From IMG/VR virus record IMGVR_UViG_3300033480_000004, positions 1 to 46,825 of that record: 46,825 bases of DNA; one strand, written 5' to 3'. This document shows, one piece after another, positions 3,117-45,836 of this stretch (positions are counted from its first letter, which is position 1; every line of letters starts with the position of its first letter). The translations under genes were made by a program, and so were the position numbers. Source of the stretch: a virus. Its lineage: Duplodnaviria; Caudoviricetes. The notes below the pieces were generated by a model. That model was not told the DNA's origin. It saw only the letters and a program-made list of their open reading frames with translations, and ran no database searches.

Positions 3117-3430
3117 TTGTTGTCTCCATCCGATAGTATTCTGTTCACGCTATCACAAACGTCTTTCATAATCTGCAACTCGCCGATGATTTGTCCGGCT
3201 TTTTCGGAAGTGACCGTTTGTTCTTTGAAACTGGGATTACCCAGAACCCCCACTTCAATGCGCGCTATTCTATCCACCCCGATAATGATATTGCTTAGGT
3301 AATGAGGCGAATAGATATACGCCAAATAGTAGCGCCCTTCCGATTGCAACTTGAAACCCTTATCGAAGTAACAACCCAACAGCCGCGTTATCCGGCACTT
3401 TTCGCTATGAGTTAATTTCGGCTCGCTCAT
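3113..3430 (-). CDS. Hypothetical protein
   Basis: Abuts the upstream gene and has an ATGA overlap with the primase start. Confidence 0.7.
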   Translation of the reverse strand: MSEPKLTHSEKCRITRLLGCYFDKGFKLQSEGRYYLAYIYSPHYLSNIIIGVDRIARIEVGVLGNPSFKEQTVTSEKAGQIIGELQIMKDVCDSVNRILSDGDNK

Positions 3431-4195
3431 TTAATCACCCCACAATGATAATTGTTTGGTTGGCGCTTTTGGTTGTTCCGGTTGGTGTTGGTGACGCAAT
3501 GGCTTTATGCCGCCGGGGAAGTCCTGGTACAATTGCCCTAGCGCGTCGGGGCGCATCCCTGGAAATTGCCCGGTGCTTTGTTTGAAGTAAAACGCCACGC
3601 CTTGTTTGGCGCATAATGCCTGAGCTTCCCTTGCCCAATTCAACTCAAAATAACGCCGGTTCGCTCCCGACTCCGCGCCGCATACCAACCAGTCAACCCC
3701 CGACAAATCGGGTTTATCCAGACTGCCGAGCGCCGGTTCGTAGGATACCCACCTAACCGCCGCCGGAATCCGCCGCAATAAAGGCAACCGAGAGGTATAA
3801 TCCGCCGATTCTACAGTTACCCCAAACCAGAGGTTACTCGGCCATTTAAGTATCGAGGCGAGTTTGTTTACCACCGTAGGACGTTTCGTGAGTGTTAGAA
3901 ATATCTGTTGTGGATGTTCGGCGATAATCTCATGAATGCGTTGGATATAACCCAACGGCGCTCCTTCGTGATAGGTATCGCTCATATCATTCACAAACAC
4001 AAACGCGCCCGGTTGCCATTGGCGGCATTCATTCATCGCCGATTCGCGCCACTCGATATGATCAGAGGTGTTCTGTGGATATCGTTTGCCTAATTCCAAA
4101 GCGTAACAGTTTTTGCATCCGGCGCTAATGCGAGTGCAAAACCACTTATAGATATTCAAGGCGAAATCCGCATAGGGTACTCCGGTTTGGCTCAT
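3431..4195 (-). CDS. Phage Gp37/Gp68 (DUF5131) radical-SAM-like protein
   Basis: CTRISAGCKNCYA; FVNDMSDTYHE; LTKRP; SYEPALG; GAESG; FYFKQ. Confidence 0.9.
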   Translation of the reverse strand: MSQTGVPYADFALNIYKWFCTRISAGCKNCYALELGKRYPQNTSDHIEWRESAMNECRQWQPGAFVFVNDMSDTYHEGAPLGYIQRIHEIIAEHPQQIFLTLTKRPTVVNKLASILKWPSNLWFGVTVESADYTSRLPLLRRIPAAVRWVSYEPALGSLDKPDLSGVDWLVCGAESGANRRYFELNWAREAQALCAKQGVAFYFKQSTGQFPGMRPDALGQLYQDFPGGIKPLRHQHQPEQPKAPTKQLSLWGD

Positions 4196-4698
4196 AGCTC
4201 ATCTTCCTTATACCCGCGCAATCGCCGAATGGTTTTTTCCGCCGGTTCTCCATCCCATTCTAGGCAACCTCGCGCATCCCGGTAATCACCCGTCGGAATT
4301 AGTTCAAATTCTAACACCCAAACCGTAGGATTGTCCGCCCATGCGTATCCCTTTTTCTTCCCATTGATTTTATCCCAATACGCTGCAAATTCGGCGATGG
4401 AAGCAAATCCCTCGGCGATGGCGTCCGCCTCGGTGATTCCCTGTAAGAATTGTTTACGGATACTGATGATTTCTATTCTACGCCCTATCCCCGGCTTTCC
4501 GCGTCCTAGCTGTAGCGCATAAGTTTGACCGACGCGCCATTTCATCCGTCCGTTTCTTTTTACCCAAGCATAGGAAATTTCTTTCGTCCGATAATCTATC
4601 TCAAGGACTTTGTATTCATCTCCAAGCAAGGCAATACGCCGCGTCTGTGTCTTTTCGTAGCCGAGTATCTTCTCGATTAATTCCGGTTTGAATAACAT
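4192..4698 (-). CDS. ASCH/PUA-like domain protein
   Basis: KILGYEKTQTRR ... LQGITEADAIAEGF ... WADNPTVWVLEF. Confidence 0.85.
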   Translation of the reverse strand: MLFKPELIEKILGYEKTQTRRIALLGDEYKVLEIDYRTKEISYAWVKRNGRMKWRVGQTYALQLGRGKPGIGRRIEIISIRKQFLQGITEADAIAEGFASIAEFAAYWDKINGKKKGYAWADNPTVWVLEFELIPTGDYRDARGCLEWDGEPAEKTIRRLRGYKEDEL

Positions 4699-10830: not shown

Positions 10831-11011
10831 AGTCCGGGCAGACGTGGGATTTGGATTCGAGTATGTCGCAGAAATTAAAACTGTGCAGGCAACAGATTAG
10901 AAGTGAAGCCATCGCGTATTCGATTTCTGCCCAATATGTACACCAAAGGCATTTTGAGGTAGCGGATTGGTGATAACCGTTAGGCCGTGAGGATTGGTAT
11001 TGGTTAGCCAT
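10796..11011 (-). CDS. Small Cys4 protein
   Basis: CLWC...ICCLH...VCPDY. Confidence 0.6.
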   Translation of the reverse strand: MANQYQSSRPNGYHQSATSKCLWCTYWAEIEYAMASLLICCLHSFNFCDILESKSHVCPDYEVAIKETTHD

Positions 11012-11246
11012 TATCTACTGCCGGTAAATTCTCAGAGCTGATCTGCCATTCGCGGGGTTCTAGGTGGCATTTAGGCGGAATGAGCAAGTGGCGACTCGCG
11101 GAAACGGTAGCATAGGCCGCTTCAAATTTGGTATCGTAAGGGGTTGCCTCGCCGATAGTATTCACAATCCGATTGCCTTGTAAATAACCGCGCGCGTTCC
11201 CATGCTTGGATTGCAATTCGATTACATAAATGCCTTTATTGGTCAT
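11004..11246 (-). CDS. Hypothetical protein
   Basis: AGGAG RBS; overlaps the next gene. Confidence 0.7.
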   Translation of the reverse strand: MTNKGIYVIELQSKHGNARGYLQGNRIVNTIGEATPYDTKFEAAYATVSASRHLLIPPKCHLEPREWQISSENLPAVDNG

Positions 11247-11249
11247 GGT

Positions 11250-11795
11250 TCATTCTCCTGTTTTAATAGAGTGGATGAAATGCCGCAAATCAGTGATGAT
11301 TAATTCCGGGTGACTTTTCTGGCGTTCTCTGGCCTCGGCTTCGGTAAACCGTGTGGCGACTCGGTAATCGGTCACAAACCCGCCGCCATCAAACCGGCGC
11401 TCTTGCCAGTAGAGGTAATGATCTTGTGCGTCTAACGCCAGTGCATAGATATATTCATAGCCGTTGTAAGTGTACCTCCGCCTAGCATAGTTCTCTTGTA
11501 GTTCCGCTTGCCGTTGGGTAATCCCTTGCCGGATTTCGGCCAGCCGCTTTTGCCCCGGCTCGCCGATGGCTTCTTTAGGATCATAGCGGCGCGGCGTTCC
11601 CAACTGGTAATACGGGCAGTCCGGCTGTGCCCATTGGATACACTGCCAGCCTTCCTGTTGGCAATAGATTTCGTTGCCAACGGGGATTTCAATCTTATCG
11701 AGGTAGTCCCGGCGCAAGTTCTCGTATTCCGGTTCCCCGCCGTTATCGTAAATGTGGCGGGCGGAATCACAGGTTTGGCAATTGTGGTCATTCAT
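11250..11795 (-). CDS. Hypothetical protein with N-terminal Cys4 domain (start reassigned to MNDHNCQTC)
   Basis: GAGG RBS and ATGA overlap with the upstream RHH gene. Confidence 0.7.
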   Translation of the reverse strand: MNDHNCQTCDSARHIYDNGGEPEYENLRRDYLDKIEIPVGNEIYCQQEGWQCIQWAQPDCPYYQLGTPRRYDPKEAIGEPGQKRLAEIRQGITQRQAELQENYARRRYTYNGYEYIYALALDAQDHYLYWQERRFDGGGFVTDYRVATRFTEAEARERQKSHPELIITDLRHFIHSIKTGE

Positions 11796-12016
11796 TTGGG
11801 TTCGCCTCGTTTGACCGCACGCCAGCGTTTTTCCGCGCCTTCCTGTTGCGTCATGATATGATAGTCCGGGCATTGGTATCCTTGCGCGTCCATCTGCCGG
11901 TCACACGCCAGGCGTATCCATTCGCTGTACGATATTCCTAACCGCTTCGCGCATTCCTCGATAGCCGCCCGGTGTTCCGGGGTAGTAGAAAAGATAATTC
12001 GAGTTCGGTTTGGCAT
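11792..12016 (-). CDS. Ribbon-helix-helix (CopG/Arc-like) regulator (start reassigned to MPNRTRIIF)
   Basis: RIIFSTTPEHRAAIEECAKRLGISYSEWIRLAC fits the RHH pattern; purine-rich RBS. Confidence 0.75.
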   Translation of the reverse strand: MPNRTRIIFSTTPEHRAAIEECAKRLGISYSEWIRLACDRQMDAQGYQCPDYHIMTQQEGAEKRWRAVKRGEPK

Positions 12017-12052
12017 TGCTGATTTTCCTTTTCTCCGTTTGTTGCTTCTATT

Positions 12053-12081
12053 AGCATAACATACCTGCATACATATTGCAA
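12053..12081 (-). promoter_or_regulatory. Sigma70-type promoter of the RHH gene
   Basis: TTGCAA-17nt-TATGCT; spacer contains repeated GTATG/TATGT. Confidence 0.7.
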
Positions 12082-12096
12082 GTTATTGGTAGTAAG

Positions 12097-12543
12097 TTAT
12101 TTAACCGCAAAAGTGATTTCGACGTAACTATCACGCGGCCAGGGTTGAAAGTTATCCCGCTTGCCCAGGATGGTCACGGTATATCCGTATTTGCCCAGCA
12201 CCGCGCAGATTTGGGTTGCCAGTCTAGCAGTCGTATAACCAGCATGATAGTAGTAACTCCGCCGCGCTACAAACGAGCCGTTCTTTTTGGCAATTACCCG
12301 GTCTGCGCCAGCGAAGGTTACAATCAAGTCGCGGATATACTGTTTATCAATCTTGCTCGGGGTAGCGGCGGCAATGGCGCGGTTTATCTCGATATGCGTG
12401 GCAAAGGTATACAGGCGCGCTGCTTTCAGGTGGTCGCATTCAGCTTCCCATTCCCGTCTGATTTGCGCTGCCGCAAACCAGTTATCGTTGGCGATCTTCA
12501 TCGCCGCCAATTCGATTTCGTGTTCGGTAGTAATCAGGGTCAT
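12097..12543 (-). CDS. Hypothetical early protein, WPRDS-motif paralog B
   Basis: AGGAG RBS; C-terminal domain RRSYYY...FQPWPRDSYVEITF. Confidence 0.8.
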   Translation of the reverse strand: MTLITTEHEIELAAMKIANDNWFAAAQIRREWEAECDHLKAARLYTFATHIEINRAIAAATPSKIDKQYIRDLIVTFAGADRVIAKKNGSFVARRSYYYHAGYTTARLATQICAVLGKYGYTVTILGKRDNFQPWPRDSYVEITFAVK

Positions 12544-12559
12544 GTTGGTTCTCCTAGTT

Positions 12560-12624
12560 CGCCTTAGTCATCGTCAGTGTGGGTTAGGCGTGTACCCGCA
12601 GACCCGCCGGAGCGGGTTTCGACT
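12560..12624 (-). ncRNA. Type II hammerhead ribozyme (HH-B)
   Basis: AGTC-GAAA-CCCGC(TCCG)GCGGG-TC-TGCGGGT(ACACGCCTA)ACCCACA-CTGACGA-T-GACT; loop CGCCT pairs with the 3' tail AGGCG. Confidence 0.9.
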
Positions 12625-12631
12625 TTAGCTA

Positions 12632-12838
12632 CTAACGCCAGTTTTCCAATTTCATTTGATAGAAGTTGGCCTCTTGATGGTATTCGGCGACCCGAAGGTT
12701 ATAGTATTTCTGGAGCGCGGTTTCGCCGTGTTGTCGGGCATCCTCGGCCATGTCCTCATAGTAAATGGCCTTGTCTTCCATTTTAGCAACTATTGCCTGT
12801 AATGCTTGAATTGCTATTTCGTCAATTTGGCTTCTCAT
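12632..12838 (-). CDS. Small helical hypothetical protein between the two ribozymes
   Basis: GGGAG RBS, double TAG stop. Confidence 0.8.
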   Translation of the reverse strand: MRSQIDEIAIQALQAIVAKMEDKAIYYEDMAEDARQHGETALQKYYNLRVAEYHQEANFYQMKLENWR

Positions 12839-12856
12839 TCGTCTGCTCCCTAGTTA

Positions 12857-12905
12857 GTCTCATCAGGCCGGGTTATTCCGGCGACGCCCGCGTGGGCGTT
12901 TCGAC
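12857..12905 (-). ncRNA. Type II hammerhead ribozyme (HH-A)
   Basis: GTC-GAAA-CGCCC(ACGC)GGGCG-TC-GCCGG(AATAAC)CCGGC-CTGATGA-GAC; intact catalytic core with a GUC cleavage triplet. Confidence 0.92.
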
Positions 12906-12906
12906 A

Positions 12907-13395
12907 TTAGGCGTTGGATATCAACCACTGTGTAATTGCAGATTGCATCAAACCTTGCAGCATATTGCGTTCCTCATTACTGTGGATGGTATGGCGGACT
13001 AATTGTATCTGGCGATCCTGGAGTTTATGAGCCAATCTCCAGTACCGTTCATCATGGCTTAAAATATATTCGGCCTTACCAGTCATCACATCGGCAATGT
13101 ACTCGGCGCGCTCGTCGATTATAGCGTTGGTATCAGCAAAAACCTTGATGGTTACGGTATAGAAACTATCACGCGGCCAGTTGTTCCAATGCGTTCCTTG
13201 ATCTTCGATACGATAGACGAGATTAGTCGCTTGCAATTGCTGGTTGACTTTTTCAACGTAACCAGCTAATTGACCTGCTGGTTGGTAAAAGAAACCTCTA
13301 CGGATGGTCACGGTATTGTCACGATGGAAAGTGATTTTGTCGTAACCTACAATGTTTAACGCGGTTTGCACTTGTTGCTTTAGTTGTTTGTTCAC
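12907..13395 (-). CDS. Hypothetical early protein, WPRDS-motif paralog A
   Basis: GTG start with AAGGAG RBS; RRGFFY...WNNWPRDSFYTVTI. Confidence 0.8.
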   Translation of the reverse strand: MNKQLKQQVQTALNIVGYDKITFHRDNTVTIRRGFFYQPAGQLAGYVEKVNQQLQATNLVYRIEDQGTHWNNWPRDSFYTVTIKVFADTNAIIDERAEYIADVMTGKAEYILSHDERYWRLAHKLQDRQIQLVRHTIHSNEERNMLQGLMQSAITQWLISNA

Positions 13396-13482
13396 TGTCT
13401 CTTCTCCTTACTCCGTTGGTCGATACTTGCTCGCTGGTTGCCCCTCTAGTTGCGCGGGGTGTTTGTTTATTTAACTATCTAT

Positions 13483-13511
13483 AGTATAACATACAACCAT
13501 CTAAATGTAAA
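13483..13511 (-). promoter_or_regulatory. Leftward early promoter
   Basis: TTTACA-17nt-TATACT in the AT-rich divergence region. Confidence 0.8.
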
Positions 13512-13536
13512 GTAACATTAATCTGTTGTTAATCTA

Positions 13537-13566
13537 TTGCACGCGCGCCCAAGAATATGGTACACT
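13537..13566 (+). promoter_or_regulatory. Rightward divergent promoter
   Basis: TTGCAC-18nt-TACACT with TGn extension. Confidence 0.55.
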
Positions 13567-13595
13567 GAAGGCAGTGCTAGTGAATGAGGATCGAC

Positions 13596-13931
13596 ATGGC
13601 GAGACGGAAAACTCTATTACGATTAACGGAGTGGATGGCAATGTTTTTAATGGCGCATGGCTATTTCCCTCCGGGCGTGCCGGTAGCAGAATGGGAGCCC
13701 GGCTTCGCTCCAAACTGGGCGCGCAAACGAATTGCCAGTGATCCGGGTTGGGACGGGCAAATGTTGGCAACCCACCTAAAGGTCTGCCCGCATTGTGGCA
13801 ACGAATGGCCGGAAAGTCCGGCCTTTTGGCCGCGTAACAAATACGGACGCGGCGGCCTGTACTCGCTGTGTTTATGTTGCAAACGGGACGCTGACAATGG
13901 TCGATATCGGCGCTTGAAATTTATACGGTAA
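13596..13931 (+). CDS. Zinc-finger hypothetical protein
   Basis: GAGG RBS; KVCPHCG...FWPRNK..RGGLYSLCLCCK. Confidence 0.7.
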   Translation: MARRKTLLRLTEWMAMFLMAHGYFPPGVPVAEWEPGFAPNWARKRIASDPGWDGQMLATHLKVCPHCGNEWPESPAFWPRNKYGRGGLYSLCLCCKRDADNGRYRRLKFIR

Positions 13932-13942
13932 CGTGGTAGAAT
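13914..13942 (+). promoter_or_regulatory. Promoter of the methyltransferase cassette
   Basis: TTGAAA-17nt-TAGAAT with TGn extension. Confidence 0.75.
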
Positions 13943-13953
13943 TTATCTGGCGA

Positions 13954-14049
13954 CAAAAGCAAAAACCGGATAGGTATCCGGTTCTGCCTAGCAGCTTTTG
14001 CGAAGGATTGCTATACTGAGAATATACCATACTCAGGAAAGGATTACAA
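13954..14049 (-). ncRNA. Antisense promoter, short RNA and terminator over the methyltransferase leader
   Basis: TTGTAA-17nt-TATATT (14049-14021), then hairpin AACCGGAT/ATCCGGTT with a U-rich tail. Confidence 0.55.
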
Positions 14050-15230
14050 TGGATAATGAATCAGTAATTGAGTTAAGTTCTTTGGTATCTGGTAAGGCGA
14101 CGCTTTCCCAGACCGGCTTACAAATTGATGAATCGGTTACGTTCTTAGAATGGGAACAAATTGGGACTGTTTTGTTTGCCTTAGAAAAAACTATCCACTT
14201 TGCCATCGGTGATTGGATAAATTTCGGTGAACATCGTTACGGGGAGATGTATGCGCAAGCGTTAGAAATCGCCACTTATAGTTATGAGACATTAAGAATA
14301 GACACTTACGTAGCGAATAGGGTTAAATTGTTGCGCCGGCGCAACAATTTAAGTTGGAGTCATCATCGGGAGGTCGCTTCCCTGGAACAAGACAAACAGG
14401 ATTATTATCTTGATTTAGCAGAGCGTAATGGCCTAGATAGAAATGAGTTGCGCGGCCAAATTAAACAAGATAGAAATCGAGAGCTACTACTGAAGCCGGG
14501 GGGAGGGATTGTTAATGACCCGATGATCCACTATGGCAGGGCTGAGGCGATGATAATGATCGGAGATGAAACGGTTGATTTAATCATCACGTCTCCGCCC
14601 TACAATTTAGGCGGCGAGTCGTGGCCTATGGGAGGGGACGGACGCGCACCCCGCGAAAGCGGAATAGGTTATTCAGACGACCACGAGGAAATCGATTATC
14701 AGCAATGGCAAGTTAATTGTTTGAATGAATGCTATCGGGTTGCTAAACCAGGCGCGTCTATGTTTTATAACCATAAAGTTAGGGTAAAGGGGGGGAGGGC
14801 GATCCATCCGATGGATTGGTTGCGACGCTCGGATTGGATTATCCGGCAAGAGATTGTTTGGGATAGGAAATCCACGCATAATCATAGCCCAACTTTGTTT
14901 TGGCCTGAAGACGAACGTATTTATTGGTTGACTAAAGGAGCGCCGGTTTTATCGGAGCACCCCATTGGTAAATCGACGGTATGGCGTTGTTTCGGGCCGA
15001 TACCAGAACAGTCTTGGCATCCGGCTCCGTTTACATCTGAATTGCCAATTATGATTTTAGAAGCGGTTGGGAGAACTGAAATGGTAGTTCTTGACCCGTT
15101 TATGGGGTCAGGGACTACCATAAAAGTGGCCTTGCAATATGGGTGTCAAGCAATTGGGGTAGATAATAATCTCGAATATATCAATAGAGCATGTCAGGAA
15201 AATGGATGGAAACTAACAAACGAAATTTAA
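14049..15230 (+). CDS. LmbU-like domain fused to a beta-class N4-C/N6-A DNA methyltransferase (start reassigned to MDNES)
   Basis: FAIGDWINFGEHRYGEMY..LSWSHHREVA (LmbU-like); DLIITSPPY motif IV before VLDPFMGSGTT motif I; HPAPF. Confidence 0.85.
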   Translation: MDNESVIELSSLVSGKATLSQTGLQIDESVTFLEWEQIGTVLFALEKTIHFAIGDWINFGEHRYGEMYAQALEIATYSYETLRIDTYVANRVKLLRRRNNLSWSHHREVASLEQDKQDYYLDLAERNGLDRNELRGQIKQDRNRELLLKPGGGIVNDPMIHYGRAEAMIMIGDETVDLIITSPPYNLGGESWPMGGDGRAPRESGIGYSDDHEEIDYQQWQVNCLNECYRVAKPGASMFYNHKVRVKGGRAIHPMDWLRRSDWIIRQEIVWDRKSTHNHSPTLFWPEDERIYWLTKGAPVLSEHPIGKSTVWRCFGPIPEQSWHPAPFTSELPIMILEAVGRTEMVVLDPFMGSGTTIKVALQYGCQAIGVDNNLEYINRACQENGWKLTNEI

Positions 15231-15943: not shown

Positions 15944-16486
15944 ATGACTACGATTTTGGGTTGTGTTGAAAACGGTAAGGTCTACATCGGAGCAGATAGC
16001 CAATTTACCAGTGGATGGATGTATTTTGTTTCCGGCGAAAAGAAAGTATTCCGAGTGCAGGACGTGTTATTCGCCTGTTCCGGCACATTACGGGATTTGC
16101 AGAGTATTCGCTATCTAACCCAATTTCCTAACCAATCGCCCGACGAAACAGATGATATTCGTTATTTGGTCACGGTTGTGGCGGATGCGATCCGGGTTAG
16201 TTTACGAGACCAGAACCGGATTAAAAAAGAAAACGAATTGGAGGACGCGGAATCAGATTTCCTGGTGGGTTATCGCAACCGATTATACCGGCTGCATGGC
16301 GATGGCGCTTTTGCCGTATGTCCAACTCCTGTTGCTTGTTTGGGCACGGGCGGCGAATTGGCGTTAGGCGCATTTCTGGCGCGCCCGGAATTACCCCCTA
16401 CCGAACGCATTTTGCAGGCTCTTGTAATTGCCGGTTGTTTGGATATCGCCACGCGCCCGCCTTATTATGTGGAAGTGTTGGAATGA
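15944..16486 (+). CDS. Ntn-hydrolase, HslV/proteasome-beta-like threonine protease
   Basis: M-TTILG N-terminus; IGADSQ; KKVF lysine; ACSG; LGTGGELALG. Confidence 0.85.
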   Translation: MTTILGCVENGKVYIGADSQFTSGWMYFVSGEKKVFRVQDVLFACSGTLRDLQSIRYLTQFPNQSPDETDDIRYLVTVVADAIRVSLRDQNRIKKENELEDAESDFLVGYRNRLYRLHGDGAFAVCPTPVACLGTGGELALGAFLARPELPPTERILQALVIAGCLDIATRPPYYVEVLE

Positions 16487-22636: not shown

Positions 22637-23719
22637 ATGAGCGGTATCTTTGGAATTTTGGGATTAGACGATACTGACCGTAGTTTCATCTCTACGTTGG
22701 GTCAGGCGGTGGTTTTTGATGCTACTCAAAAACTGTTGGCAGATTATAACGCGGAATTGGCGTGGCAGTTGCGCGCCTTTGTCGAAATGGAAACTGAGAA
22801 CTACACCGAACGGTACAAACTACCCGGCGGCGGGTATTTGCAACGGCGTTCGGGAACGGCGCAATCGGCGGCGGTGAAAGCCTATGGGTCGTGGGATTGC
22901 TCCTATCCACTAGAGCCGTTTGGCGCTCAAGTGGCCGGGGATACTCGCACGTTAGCCTATATGACTATTGACGAATACAACCGCCACTTGCAAACCGTGA
23001 TGATTCAGGACGCCAATACCCTGCGGTTTGAAATTTTGCGGCGTCTGTTAGACAACGTAGCCGACACGTTTGTTGATCCAATCTGGGGCAGTCTGACCAT
23101 TCAACCGTTGGCGAATGGTGATGCAGTAATCTATCCACCGGTTATTGGTAGCACGACTGAGGCAATCGAAGATCATTATCTCGAATCGGGATATGCTTCG
23201 ACTTCCATTACGGACACCAATAATCCGTATGTCACTATCCGCGATGACTTGGAACATCACTTCGGCAAAGTCACCGGCGGGCAGAACATTGTGTGTTATA
23301 TCAATAGCGCGCAACGTGCCCTAACCGAAGACTTGACCGATTTCTACGATATTCCCGATGCTTATGTGCGCCCCGGTCAGGACACCGACGTGCCGTATGG
23401 CTATCCCGATGTTCCGCCGACGGCGCAAGTGTATGGCCGTTGCTCTGGCGTGTGGGTCGTGGGTTGGAACTGGATTCCGGCCAACTATATCATCGGTATC
23501 CATGCCGACGCGCCGAAACCTTTGAAACTACGGATTGACCCGGCCTATACCGGATTGCCTCGTGGTTTGTCATTGGTATCCACTGACTCGACCTATCCGA
23601 TTACTCAATCTCACTGGGAGCATAACTTTGGGGTTGGTTGTGGCAATCGCCTGAACGGTGTCATCATGGAATTGGGTGTCGGTGGCACGTATTCAATCCC
23701 GTCCGGCTATAGCGTGTAA
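22637..23719 (+). CDS. Major capsid protein
   Basis: Size, position and strong AAGGAG RBS; C-terminal FGVGCGNR. Confidence 0.75.
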   Translation: MSGIFGILGLDDTDRSFISTLGQAVVFDATQKLLADYNAELAWQLRAFVEMETENYTERYKLPGGGYLQRRSGTAQSAAVKAYGSWDCSYPLEPFGAQVAGDTRTLAYMTIDEYNRHLQTVMIQDANTLRFEILRRLLDNVADTFVDPIWGSLTIQPLANGDAVIYPPVIGSTTEAIEDHYLESGYASTSITDTNNPYVTIRDDLEHHFGKVTGGQNIVCYINSAQRALTEDLTDFYDIPDAYVRPGQDTDVPYGYPDVPPTAQVYGRCSGVWVVGWNWIPANYIIGIHADAPKPLKLRIDPAYTGLPRGLSLVSTDSTYPITQSHWEHNFGVGCGNRLNGVIMELGVGGTYSIPSGYSV

Positions 23720-45200: not shown

Positions 45201-45836
45201 TCAGGACGCCACGTCACTACTTAGGACGTGGTTTTCTTCTATAGCGGCATGGCGCTGTAGCAGGTTCTGTAGTCGATTTAATAGGCCGTCCGCCGCAGAA
45301 CCCCCGTTCGTGCGCTGGCGTTCCTCTAGCGCCTGTATAATCGTCTCAAGCTCAACAATCGTGAACGTCGTTGTGATCGAAATCGGGATGCCAGCATCAT
45401 GTTTAATTTGGCGGTCAAGTTCCCGCGCCGACCAATCATTGCTCACGGCGGCGGCTAGATATTCCCGGCGTTGTTCTATTTCGGGCAACCGAGCGGCGAA
45501 GCGGTAATGCTCATAAGTGAGATTCTCACCGCGCAATGAAGGTGGGATAGCATTAGCTACAGATTGGTAGTTGGCTAATGTACCAGCATCTTTCCCGGTG
45601 ATTCGTACCGCCTGGGTATAGGTTTCACCATAACGATGATCCCCGTAGACTAACCAATCGCCGATTGCCATTTGGATACACAATTCGATTGCCTGCAACG
45701 TCTGGCCGATAGCTTCCCATTCGTAATAATCCAAGCCATCGGCAAGCACTAACCCTTGCGGTGTAAGTTGCGCTTTAGACGTTTGGAGCGGGGTTAGTTG
45801 TATTGCCGCGTGGTTGTCGTTGCCGTTGTCGCTCAT
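45201..45836 (-). CDS. LmbU-like DNA-binding protein (stand-alone)
   Basis: WEAIG..MAIGDWLVYGDHRYGETY..LTYEHYRFAA..WSAREL; paralog of the methyltransferase N-terminus. Confidence 0.8.
   Translation of the reverse strand: MSDNGNDNHAAIQLTPLQTSKAQLTPQGLVLADGLDYYEWEAIGQTLQAIELCIQMAIGDWLVYGDHRYGETYTQAVRITGKDAGTLANYQSVANAIPPSLRGENLTYEHYRFAARLPEIEQRREYLAAAVSNDWSARELDRQIKHDAGIPISITTTFTIVELETIIQALEERQRTNGGSAADGLLNRLQNLLQRHAAIEENHVLSSDVAS

Follow-up and report, generated by a model that had tools for sequence, protein, structure and literature searches.

Two type II hammerhead motifs occupy the gaps on either side of a complete 68-aa gene in the putative early region of a phage, and one DNA contig of a related strain lacks the first motif together with that gene. 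Both hammerheads likely self-cleave in cis, which would yield linear single-gene messages, and related phages likely gain or lose the ribozyme-gene unit as a single DNA block (probability of about 0.7 for this reading).

The window is the whole virus record (46,825 bases), which carries direct terminal repeats and has a CheckV completeness estimate of 58%. Judged by its gene content, including terminase subunits, tail proteins, a primase-helicase, a DNA methyltransferase and a RecT-like protein, the source is a tailed dsDNA phage; the sequencing runs that contain it are wetland metagenomes. The best named terminase matches were actinophages (37-46%), and a host scan with the 360-aa ORF at 22637-23719 gave a single weak match.

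Two type II hammerheads in consecutive gaps

The elements of the locus are listed below in the order in which they would be transcribed.

13483..13511, minus strand: P1, predicted early sigma-70-type promoter (TTTACA, 17 nt, TATACT, extended TG)
12907..13395, minus strand: gene A, ORF of 162 aa with an unnamed alpha/beta domain at residues 1-86
12857..12905, minus strand: HH1, type II hammerhead with predicted cut 12883/12882 (descriptor, RF02276 at 28.2 bits, fold)
12601..12882, minus strand: predicted inter-cut RNA of 282 nt, with 5'-OH and 2',3'-cyclic phosphate ends deduced from the predicted cut sites
12846..12852, minus strand: Shine-Dalgarno (SD) sequence preceding the small gene; predicted pairing of its 5'-most bases with the gene A stop region extends stem II
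12632..12838, minus strand: small gene, ORF of 68 aa with SD and an ATG at 12838
12560..12624, minus strand: HH2, type II hammerhead with predicted cut 12601/12600 (descriptor, RF02276 at 22.3 bits)
12097..12543, minus strand: gene B, ORF of 148 aa, of which residues 63-147 are the domain common with gene A
12053..12081, minus strand: P2, predicted second early promoter, resembling P1 and directly 3' of gene B

The first-pass annotation had placed a type II hammerhead in each gap around the 68-aa gene, and this was confirmed by a descriptor, by the RF02276 model and by the predicted fold. Both copies have the core C3 U4 G5 A6 N7 G8 A9, G12 A13 A14 A15.1, U16.1 H17, with closing loops on stems I and III, an open stem II and intact core-flanking pairs. 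The 5' half of HH1 consists of the stem II strand GUC (12905-12903), G12 to A15.1 (12902-12899), a stem III of 5 bp and C17 (12883), and its 3' half of a 5-bp stem I with a 6-nt loop, CUGAUGA (12866-12860) and GAC (12859-12857). In HH2, GUC (12623-12621) and G12 (12620) are followed by a stem III of 5 bp, C17 at 12601, a stem I of 6 pairs including one C-A mismatch, CUGACGA (12577-12571), an extra U at 12570 between A9 and G10.1, and GAC (12569-12567). As the annotation had observed, stem sequences differ between the copies while the pairing and the full core are kept in both. An extra base after A9 occurs in 11 of the 124 phage motifs surveyed (see below); for the CChMVd viroid hammerhead, the available text of PMC3705267 reports that an extra A at that position is tolerated and that a U increases the trans-cleaving rate 3-4-fold.

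HH2 can form a 5-bp pseudoknot between loop I and the tail (12590-12586 with 12564-12560), as is typical of type II; the pseudoknot test found none in HH1 (2 bp at best), and one of at least 4 bp is possible in 78/124 surveyed motifs. Such a pseudoknot was required for fast cleavage in the tested case; about 40% of hammerheads use a pseudoknot and others rely on other contacts. The last 8 bases of gene A (12914-12907) are identical to part of HH2 loop I (12591-12584), the longest stretch in common, so that both could pair with the HH2 tail. In the shorter strain described below, the gene A end and HH2 loop I would compete for the pseudoknot partner.

Searched on both strands with the descriptor, the genome contains exactly two type II motifs, both on the minus strand and in consecutive gaps; no type I or type III hammerhead was found within the 46,825-base record. 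The chance of a loose descriptor match was 0.045 per dinucleotide shuffle, and a strict match was obtained once in 2740 shuffles, with strict thresholds chosen after the motifs were seen. The RF02276 search recommended by the first-pass annotation aligned both copies to the full model (1-66 of 66), with E-values for this genome of 2.4e-5 (28.2 bits, HH1) and 8.5e-4 (22.3 bits, HH2), both below the 37-bit gathering score, which is why a default Rfam scan at gathering thresholds is empty. HH1 and HH2 resemble RF02276 (Hammerhead_II) in their whole-model alignment and conserved core and differ in scoring below the gathering cut-off; they are assigned to the type II structural class, not to the curated Rfam members. 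The minimum free energy (MFE) structures of both are hammerhead folds of unremarkable stability (z -1.66 for HH1, -0.92 for HH2), and folding in context, without pseudoknots, predicts stem II occupancies of 0.39 and 0.29.

The motifs begin shortly 3' of stop codons, as annotated, with G12 lying 5 nt (HH1) and 12 nt (HH2) past the last stop base. The predicted cuts at 12883/12882 and 12601/12600 stand, and the 282-nt piece between them contains the whole 68-aa ORF with its SD.

To place this arrangement among other phages, a narrow pattern built from HH1 was run on 5 of the 64 parts of IMG/VR and gave 131 loci, which corresponds to an estimated 1700 or so matching IMG/VR stretches. The survey set comprised 80 loci retrieved with flanks (72 contigs, 124 distinct motifs), of which 79 passed the descriptor. 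The same layout, which the annotation had proposed to look for in related phages, is indeed found elsewhere: at least two same-strand motifs are present on 29 of the 72 contigs, as counted on the stretches retrieved. A stop within 20 nt upstream combined with an SD-led start within 40 nt downstream was found for 68 of the 124 distinct phage type II motifs, and inter-cut pieces of at most 450 nt with exactly one SD-led ORF made up 24 of 53 (one of the 53 being a zero-length duplicate). The HH1/small gene/HH2 layout is typical of the phage type II class, known and common. Among eight terminase relatives of the present phage (38-49% identity), for which partial loci were examined, none had a hammerhead.

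Two unrelated phages (L012, L019) have a type II hammerhead directly 3' of a gene of about 315 aa with a HELAH motif, presumably ArdC-like and anti-restriction; this adjacency echoes the published ardA association. The Ala-stop bases that precede the motif in both loci were considered as a sign of kinship and rejected, the upstream genes being unrelated.

Gain or loss of the ribozyme-gene unit as DNA

Contigs of three runs were aligned to positions 11000-14500 at 80% likeness, and the following unit was delimited. The one run labelled metatranscriptomic, which is probably DNA, yielded no aligned contig, and no RNA run was listed among those that contain the record; neither result bears on expression.

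12625..12906, minus strand: HH1, SD and small gene as a DNA unit of 282 bp, absent from one related-strain contig (boundary ambiguous by 3 bases)

The contig concerned (record 13 of run X2, 140 nt, depth 2.76) joins 12907 to 12624 and skips 282 bases. It covers 64 bases on the gene A end (10 differences) and 52 on the shorter side, with 3 bases of ambiguity at the joint; since 64 + 52 and a loose end of 24 bases add up to 140, there are probably no letters inserted at the joint. The order in this strain would be gene A, one ribozyme and the gene B leader. The joint is located upstream of the catalytic core, where the copies have a few bases in common, and not at the cut site, a position that fits gain or loss at the DNA level and does not fit RNA splicing followed by reverse transcription. 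A related-strain contig without exactly this 282-nt ribozyme-gene unit is new here, and the evidence for the deletion consists of this one low-depth contig; each form is represented by one contig, from a single study to which the likely source run also belongs.

A second X2 contig (record 10, 1126 nt, depth 5.5) reaches from P1 to P2 and differs in what lies between them, including no more of gene B than its start. Loose contig ends in run X1 correspond to further variants of the early region. Between 11843 and 13581, the co-occurring X1 and X2 variants keep the promoter regions and differ in the genes between them, as in a hypervariable early region. No close relative of the gene B locus with its flanks was found in viral contigs, and the same search in metagenome contigs returned the phage's own record only (L035).

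Junctions were then compared over 142 loci. Flanks were shared on one side only in 16/19 related junction pairs at hammerhead gaps (4/5 families) and in 2/9 at plain gaps (2/4 families). The number of pairs is small, they are not independent of each other, and the choice of loci around hammerheads biases the count towards one-sided matches at hammerhead gaps. A cruder count based on DNA only gave 37/46 one-sided junctions. This comparison is only suggestive of swapping at hammerhead gaps.

The closest parallel to the gain or loss of the unit is PeSL-mediated shuffling in T4-type phages, for which DNA mini-circles were shown (Arbiol et al. 2010, PMC2839356). In both cases, as far as the available text of that article goes, repeated intergenic elements would border genes that come, go or are exchanged within a variable early region. 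PeSLs are promoter-terminator repeats, whereas the element here is a predicted ribozyme whose copies have only short identical stretches. No promoter- or terminator-like site was found in either hammerhead gap, and the combination of promoter and terminator stem-loop at gene borders that defines PeSLs is absent, so the parallel is considered as a resemblance and not as membership.

Genes and promoters of the early region

P1, the promoter of the first-pass annotation, has 10/12 consensus bases and an extended TG. The scan alone did not place it above chance, since the region has 8 such sites and shuffles have 5.7 +/- 3.0. Better support for P1 comes from two similar sites on the minus strand, at 12081 and 45101, which were found with a pattern tuned by eye and suggest a family of early promoters; P2, the first of these, falls under the threshold of the standard promoter scan. 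The AT-rich promoter-like sites at 13511, 12081 and 45101 (minus strand) are probably the early promoters.

Residues 1-86 of gene A and 63-147 of gene B are paralogous (E 7e-7). In the DNA, this domain of about 85 aa (A/B domain) corresponds to 13395-13138 and 12357-12103 (minus strand) and has the motif WP[KR]DS[YF]. A profile built from three sequences matched 720 proteins at E <= 0.001 (50% clustering), with many stand-alone forms of 80-110 aa among the 150 matches listed; the recognition of this unnamed domain with its 720 relatives is also new here. Gene A had no match in Pfam or PHROG, and among 60 members of the domain family no Pfam or PHROG family was found at E <= 0.001. The AlphaFold2 model is a small alpha/beta fold (mean pLDDT 93.8) for which the PDB gave neither a sequence match nor a Foldseek match at E 0.001, and the one structural match was an uncharacterised viral model (E 6.8e-4). 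The domain may represent an early host-takeover family. In several viral loci, read by eye, its gene appears directly 3' of promoter-like sequence.

Hammerheads lie within 2.5 kb of an A/B family member in one of 13 viral loci (L031), which indicates that the ribozymes are neither tied to nor required by A/B domain genes. In L031, three type I hammerheads are found between small genes at 3226-4620 (plus strand), downstream of the family member.

For the small gene, the protein search returned no homologue beyond itself, Atlas feature matches were at most 0.82, structure matches were under the naming bar, and the Pfam family PycTM scored 20.1 bits, under its cut-off of 27.2.

Elsewhere in the record, the N-terminal part of the methyltransferase gene (13998-15230, plus strand) and a 211-aa ORF (45201-45836, minus strand) both match DUF1016_N weakly. 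They resemble each other by eye, possibly through a common domain fused to an N6/N4 methylase. A gene for an HslV/proteasome-family peptidase (15944-16486, plus strand) is situated immediately 5' of the small terminase subunit.

Processing of the early transcript and its alternatives

From these elements we infer transcription from P1, cleavage of the transcript and a purpose for that cleavage. The early transcript would start at P1 and cover gene A, the small gene and gene B, and cleavage would release a gene A message, the 282-nt small-gene piece and a message from gene B onward. At the start of each downstream message, a 5'-OH end would be followed by the hairpin of stem I, a short leader and then the message's own SD. 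5'-OH ends affect RNA decay in a direction that depends on the host nucleases. Every gene could thus receive a fixed leader and a decay rate of its own, irrespective of the gene upstream, which would suit early genes that are often swapped. Full cores, paired stems and the presence of only two matches in the genome, both in consecutive gaps, favour processing; the missing pseudoknot of HH1, the low stem II occupancy and the scores under the Rfam cut-off speak against it.

The division of the early transcript into single-gene RNAs, as the first-pass annotation described it, is the most likely reading, and it is already published for this layout. The available texts of PMC3088659 and of a 2019 review (PMC6765202) carry this processing hypothesis, so the locus is not the undescribed system it had been taken for. 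Perreault et al. 2011 (PMC3088659) described, in the part available, hammerheads that flank single prophage genes, demonstrated cleavage, and proposed single-gene mRNAs, splicing and circles from such arrangements; cleavage in vitro was seen for three tandem arrangements, of which that from Agrobacterium also cleaved in E. coli, and 14/18 consensus hammerheads tested were active and 4 inactive. According to the consulted text of PMC6765202, the products may differ in stability or translation, more work was called for, and as of 2019 no purpose had been defined for the hammerheads found between phage genes. As in the clustered phage hammerheads, two same-strand motifs flank one gene in a phage genome here. 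Compared with the available content of PMC3088659, in both cases several type II hammerheads border single variable genes of a phage transcript, a loop I-tail pseudoknot can form (in HH2 here), and what has been proposed there, namely single-gene mRNAs, splicing and circles, applies here as well. The present locus differs in its phage and genes, in HH1 without a pseudoknot, in the extra U after A9 of HH2, and in the existence of a DNA form without one ribozyme-gene unit, none having been found in that text.

Cleavage could also act as a translation switch, with an extended stem II holding the start of the downstream SD until cutting or a terminating ribosome frees it. In both MFE folds, the first bases of the next SD are indeed paired with the stop region that precedes the motif, and the access gain of HH1 is 2.6 kcal/mol in one context, a value reached by 10/91 survey motifs. 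The gain nevertheless varies with the folded window (HH1 0.6-4.1, HH2 -0.5 to 2.0 kcal/mol, 21 contexts each, in pseudoknot-free calculations), and the survey median of 0.28 kcal/mol (n=91) indicates that SD gating is not a general design. On this median and the context dependence, SD gating as a general design was ruled out; a small effect of cleavage on SD access at HH1 is possible in these models, and a switch at this locus is considered unlikely. It is somewhat less likely still that HH1, or both motifs, would be slow or idle in vivo, as a passenger that arrived with the gene and is masked by ribosomes terminating gene A. The footprint of a terminating ribosome reaches G12 of HH1, which is 5 nt past the stop, and the lack of a pseudoknot is consistent with a slow or idle ribozyme, as is the inactivity of 4/18 consensus motifs in the available text of PMC3088659. 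Against an idle ribozyme, however, the core bases and core-flanking pairs are all intact in both copies, and a pseudoknot is used by about 40% of hammerheads, others using other contacts. Removal of the small gene by RNA splicing, joining the gene A piece to the gene B piece and giving the shorter DNA via reverse transcription, is hardly credible. The deleted form is shorter by exactly 282, but its joint (12624/12907) precedes the cut site by about 24 nt, while a spliced product would be joined at 12600/12883, and no reverse transcriptase match was found among the phage's own genes. The gene A 3' flank pairs better with the HH2 tail than with its own (-10.8 against -5.3 kcal/mol), but this pairing is weaker than that of HH2's own flank (-12.3) and has a p of 0.126 by shuffling, for which it was dropped as a splicing design.

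The first-pass annotation had also proposed the 282-nt piece as a candidate circular mRNA, which could be closed by a host RtcB or by the reverse reaction of a chimeric hammerhead made of the stem III end of HH2 and the stem I and core of HH1 through their common 3-bp stem II. The predicted ends are chemically suited to closure, the gene is complete with its SD, HH1 and HH2 have the same stem II pairs, as a self-ligating chimera needs, and RtcB is common in possible hosts (10/14 control genomes); retrozymes form circles from tandem hammerheads, according to the available text of PMC7761336. The candidate gained no support: no RtcB match was found among the phage's own genes (the host may carry one), the fold of the circle, with 52% of its bases paired, is ordinary (-67.9 against -62.0 +/- 4.9 kcal/mol in shuffles, z -1.2), and closure would recreate a full hammerhead at the junction. 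End-to-end pairing is likewise ordinary, 12/52 survey pairs being equally strong. The probability of the chimeric stem II is 0.06 in the closed form, which disfavours self-ligation and would also shield a protein-ligated circle from re-cutting. In the accessible part of PMC3088659, where the idea already appears, such arrangements gave neither circles nor spliced RNAs that could be detected ("data not shown"), and within a literature largely without subscription journals, as judged from titles and the starts of abstracts, neither circles nor hammerhead-bounded gene swapping were shown in phages. Retrozymes, as presented in the available text of PMC7761336, are alike in that a unit whose ends can be ligated could be released by two hammerheads spaced some hundred nt apart. 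They are multi-copy retroelements of eukaryotes, their motifs are of type I or III and their circles accumulate; the unit found here is coding, single-copy and bounded by type II motifs, and its fold is unremarkable (z -1.2), which sets it outside the retrozymes. A circular mRNA is therefore considered quite improbable, and the wider proposal, in which swappable ribozyme-gene cassettes build phage early regions and the 282-nt RNA becomes a translated circular mRNA, a shade more so. If true, the latter would be a natural protein-coding circle from a DNA phage in a bacterium and a new kind of phage mRNA.

Cleavage in cis into linear single-gene messages, with the ribozyme-gene unit exchanged as DNA, thus remains the preferred reading. 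Hammerheads between phage genes pose a real open question, of which this locus, one compact example among many and without a cultured host, is not the best place to settle the purpose. Its modest contribution is a natural pair of forms that differ by one ribozyme-gene unit, together with two copies of an early-gene domain that is unnamed and has a large family.
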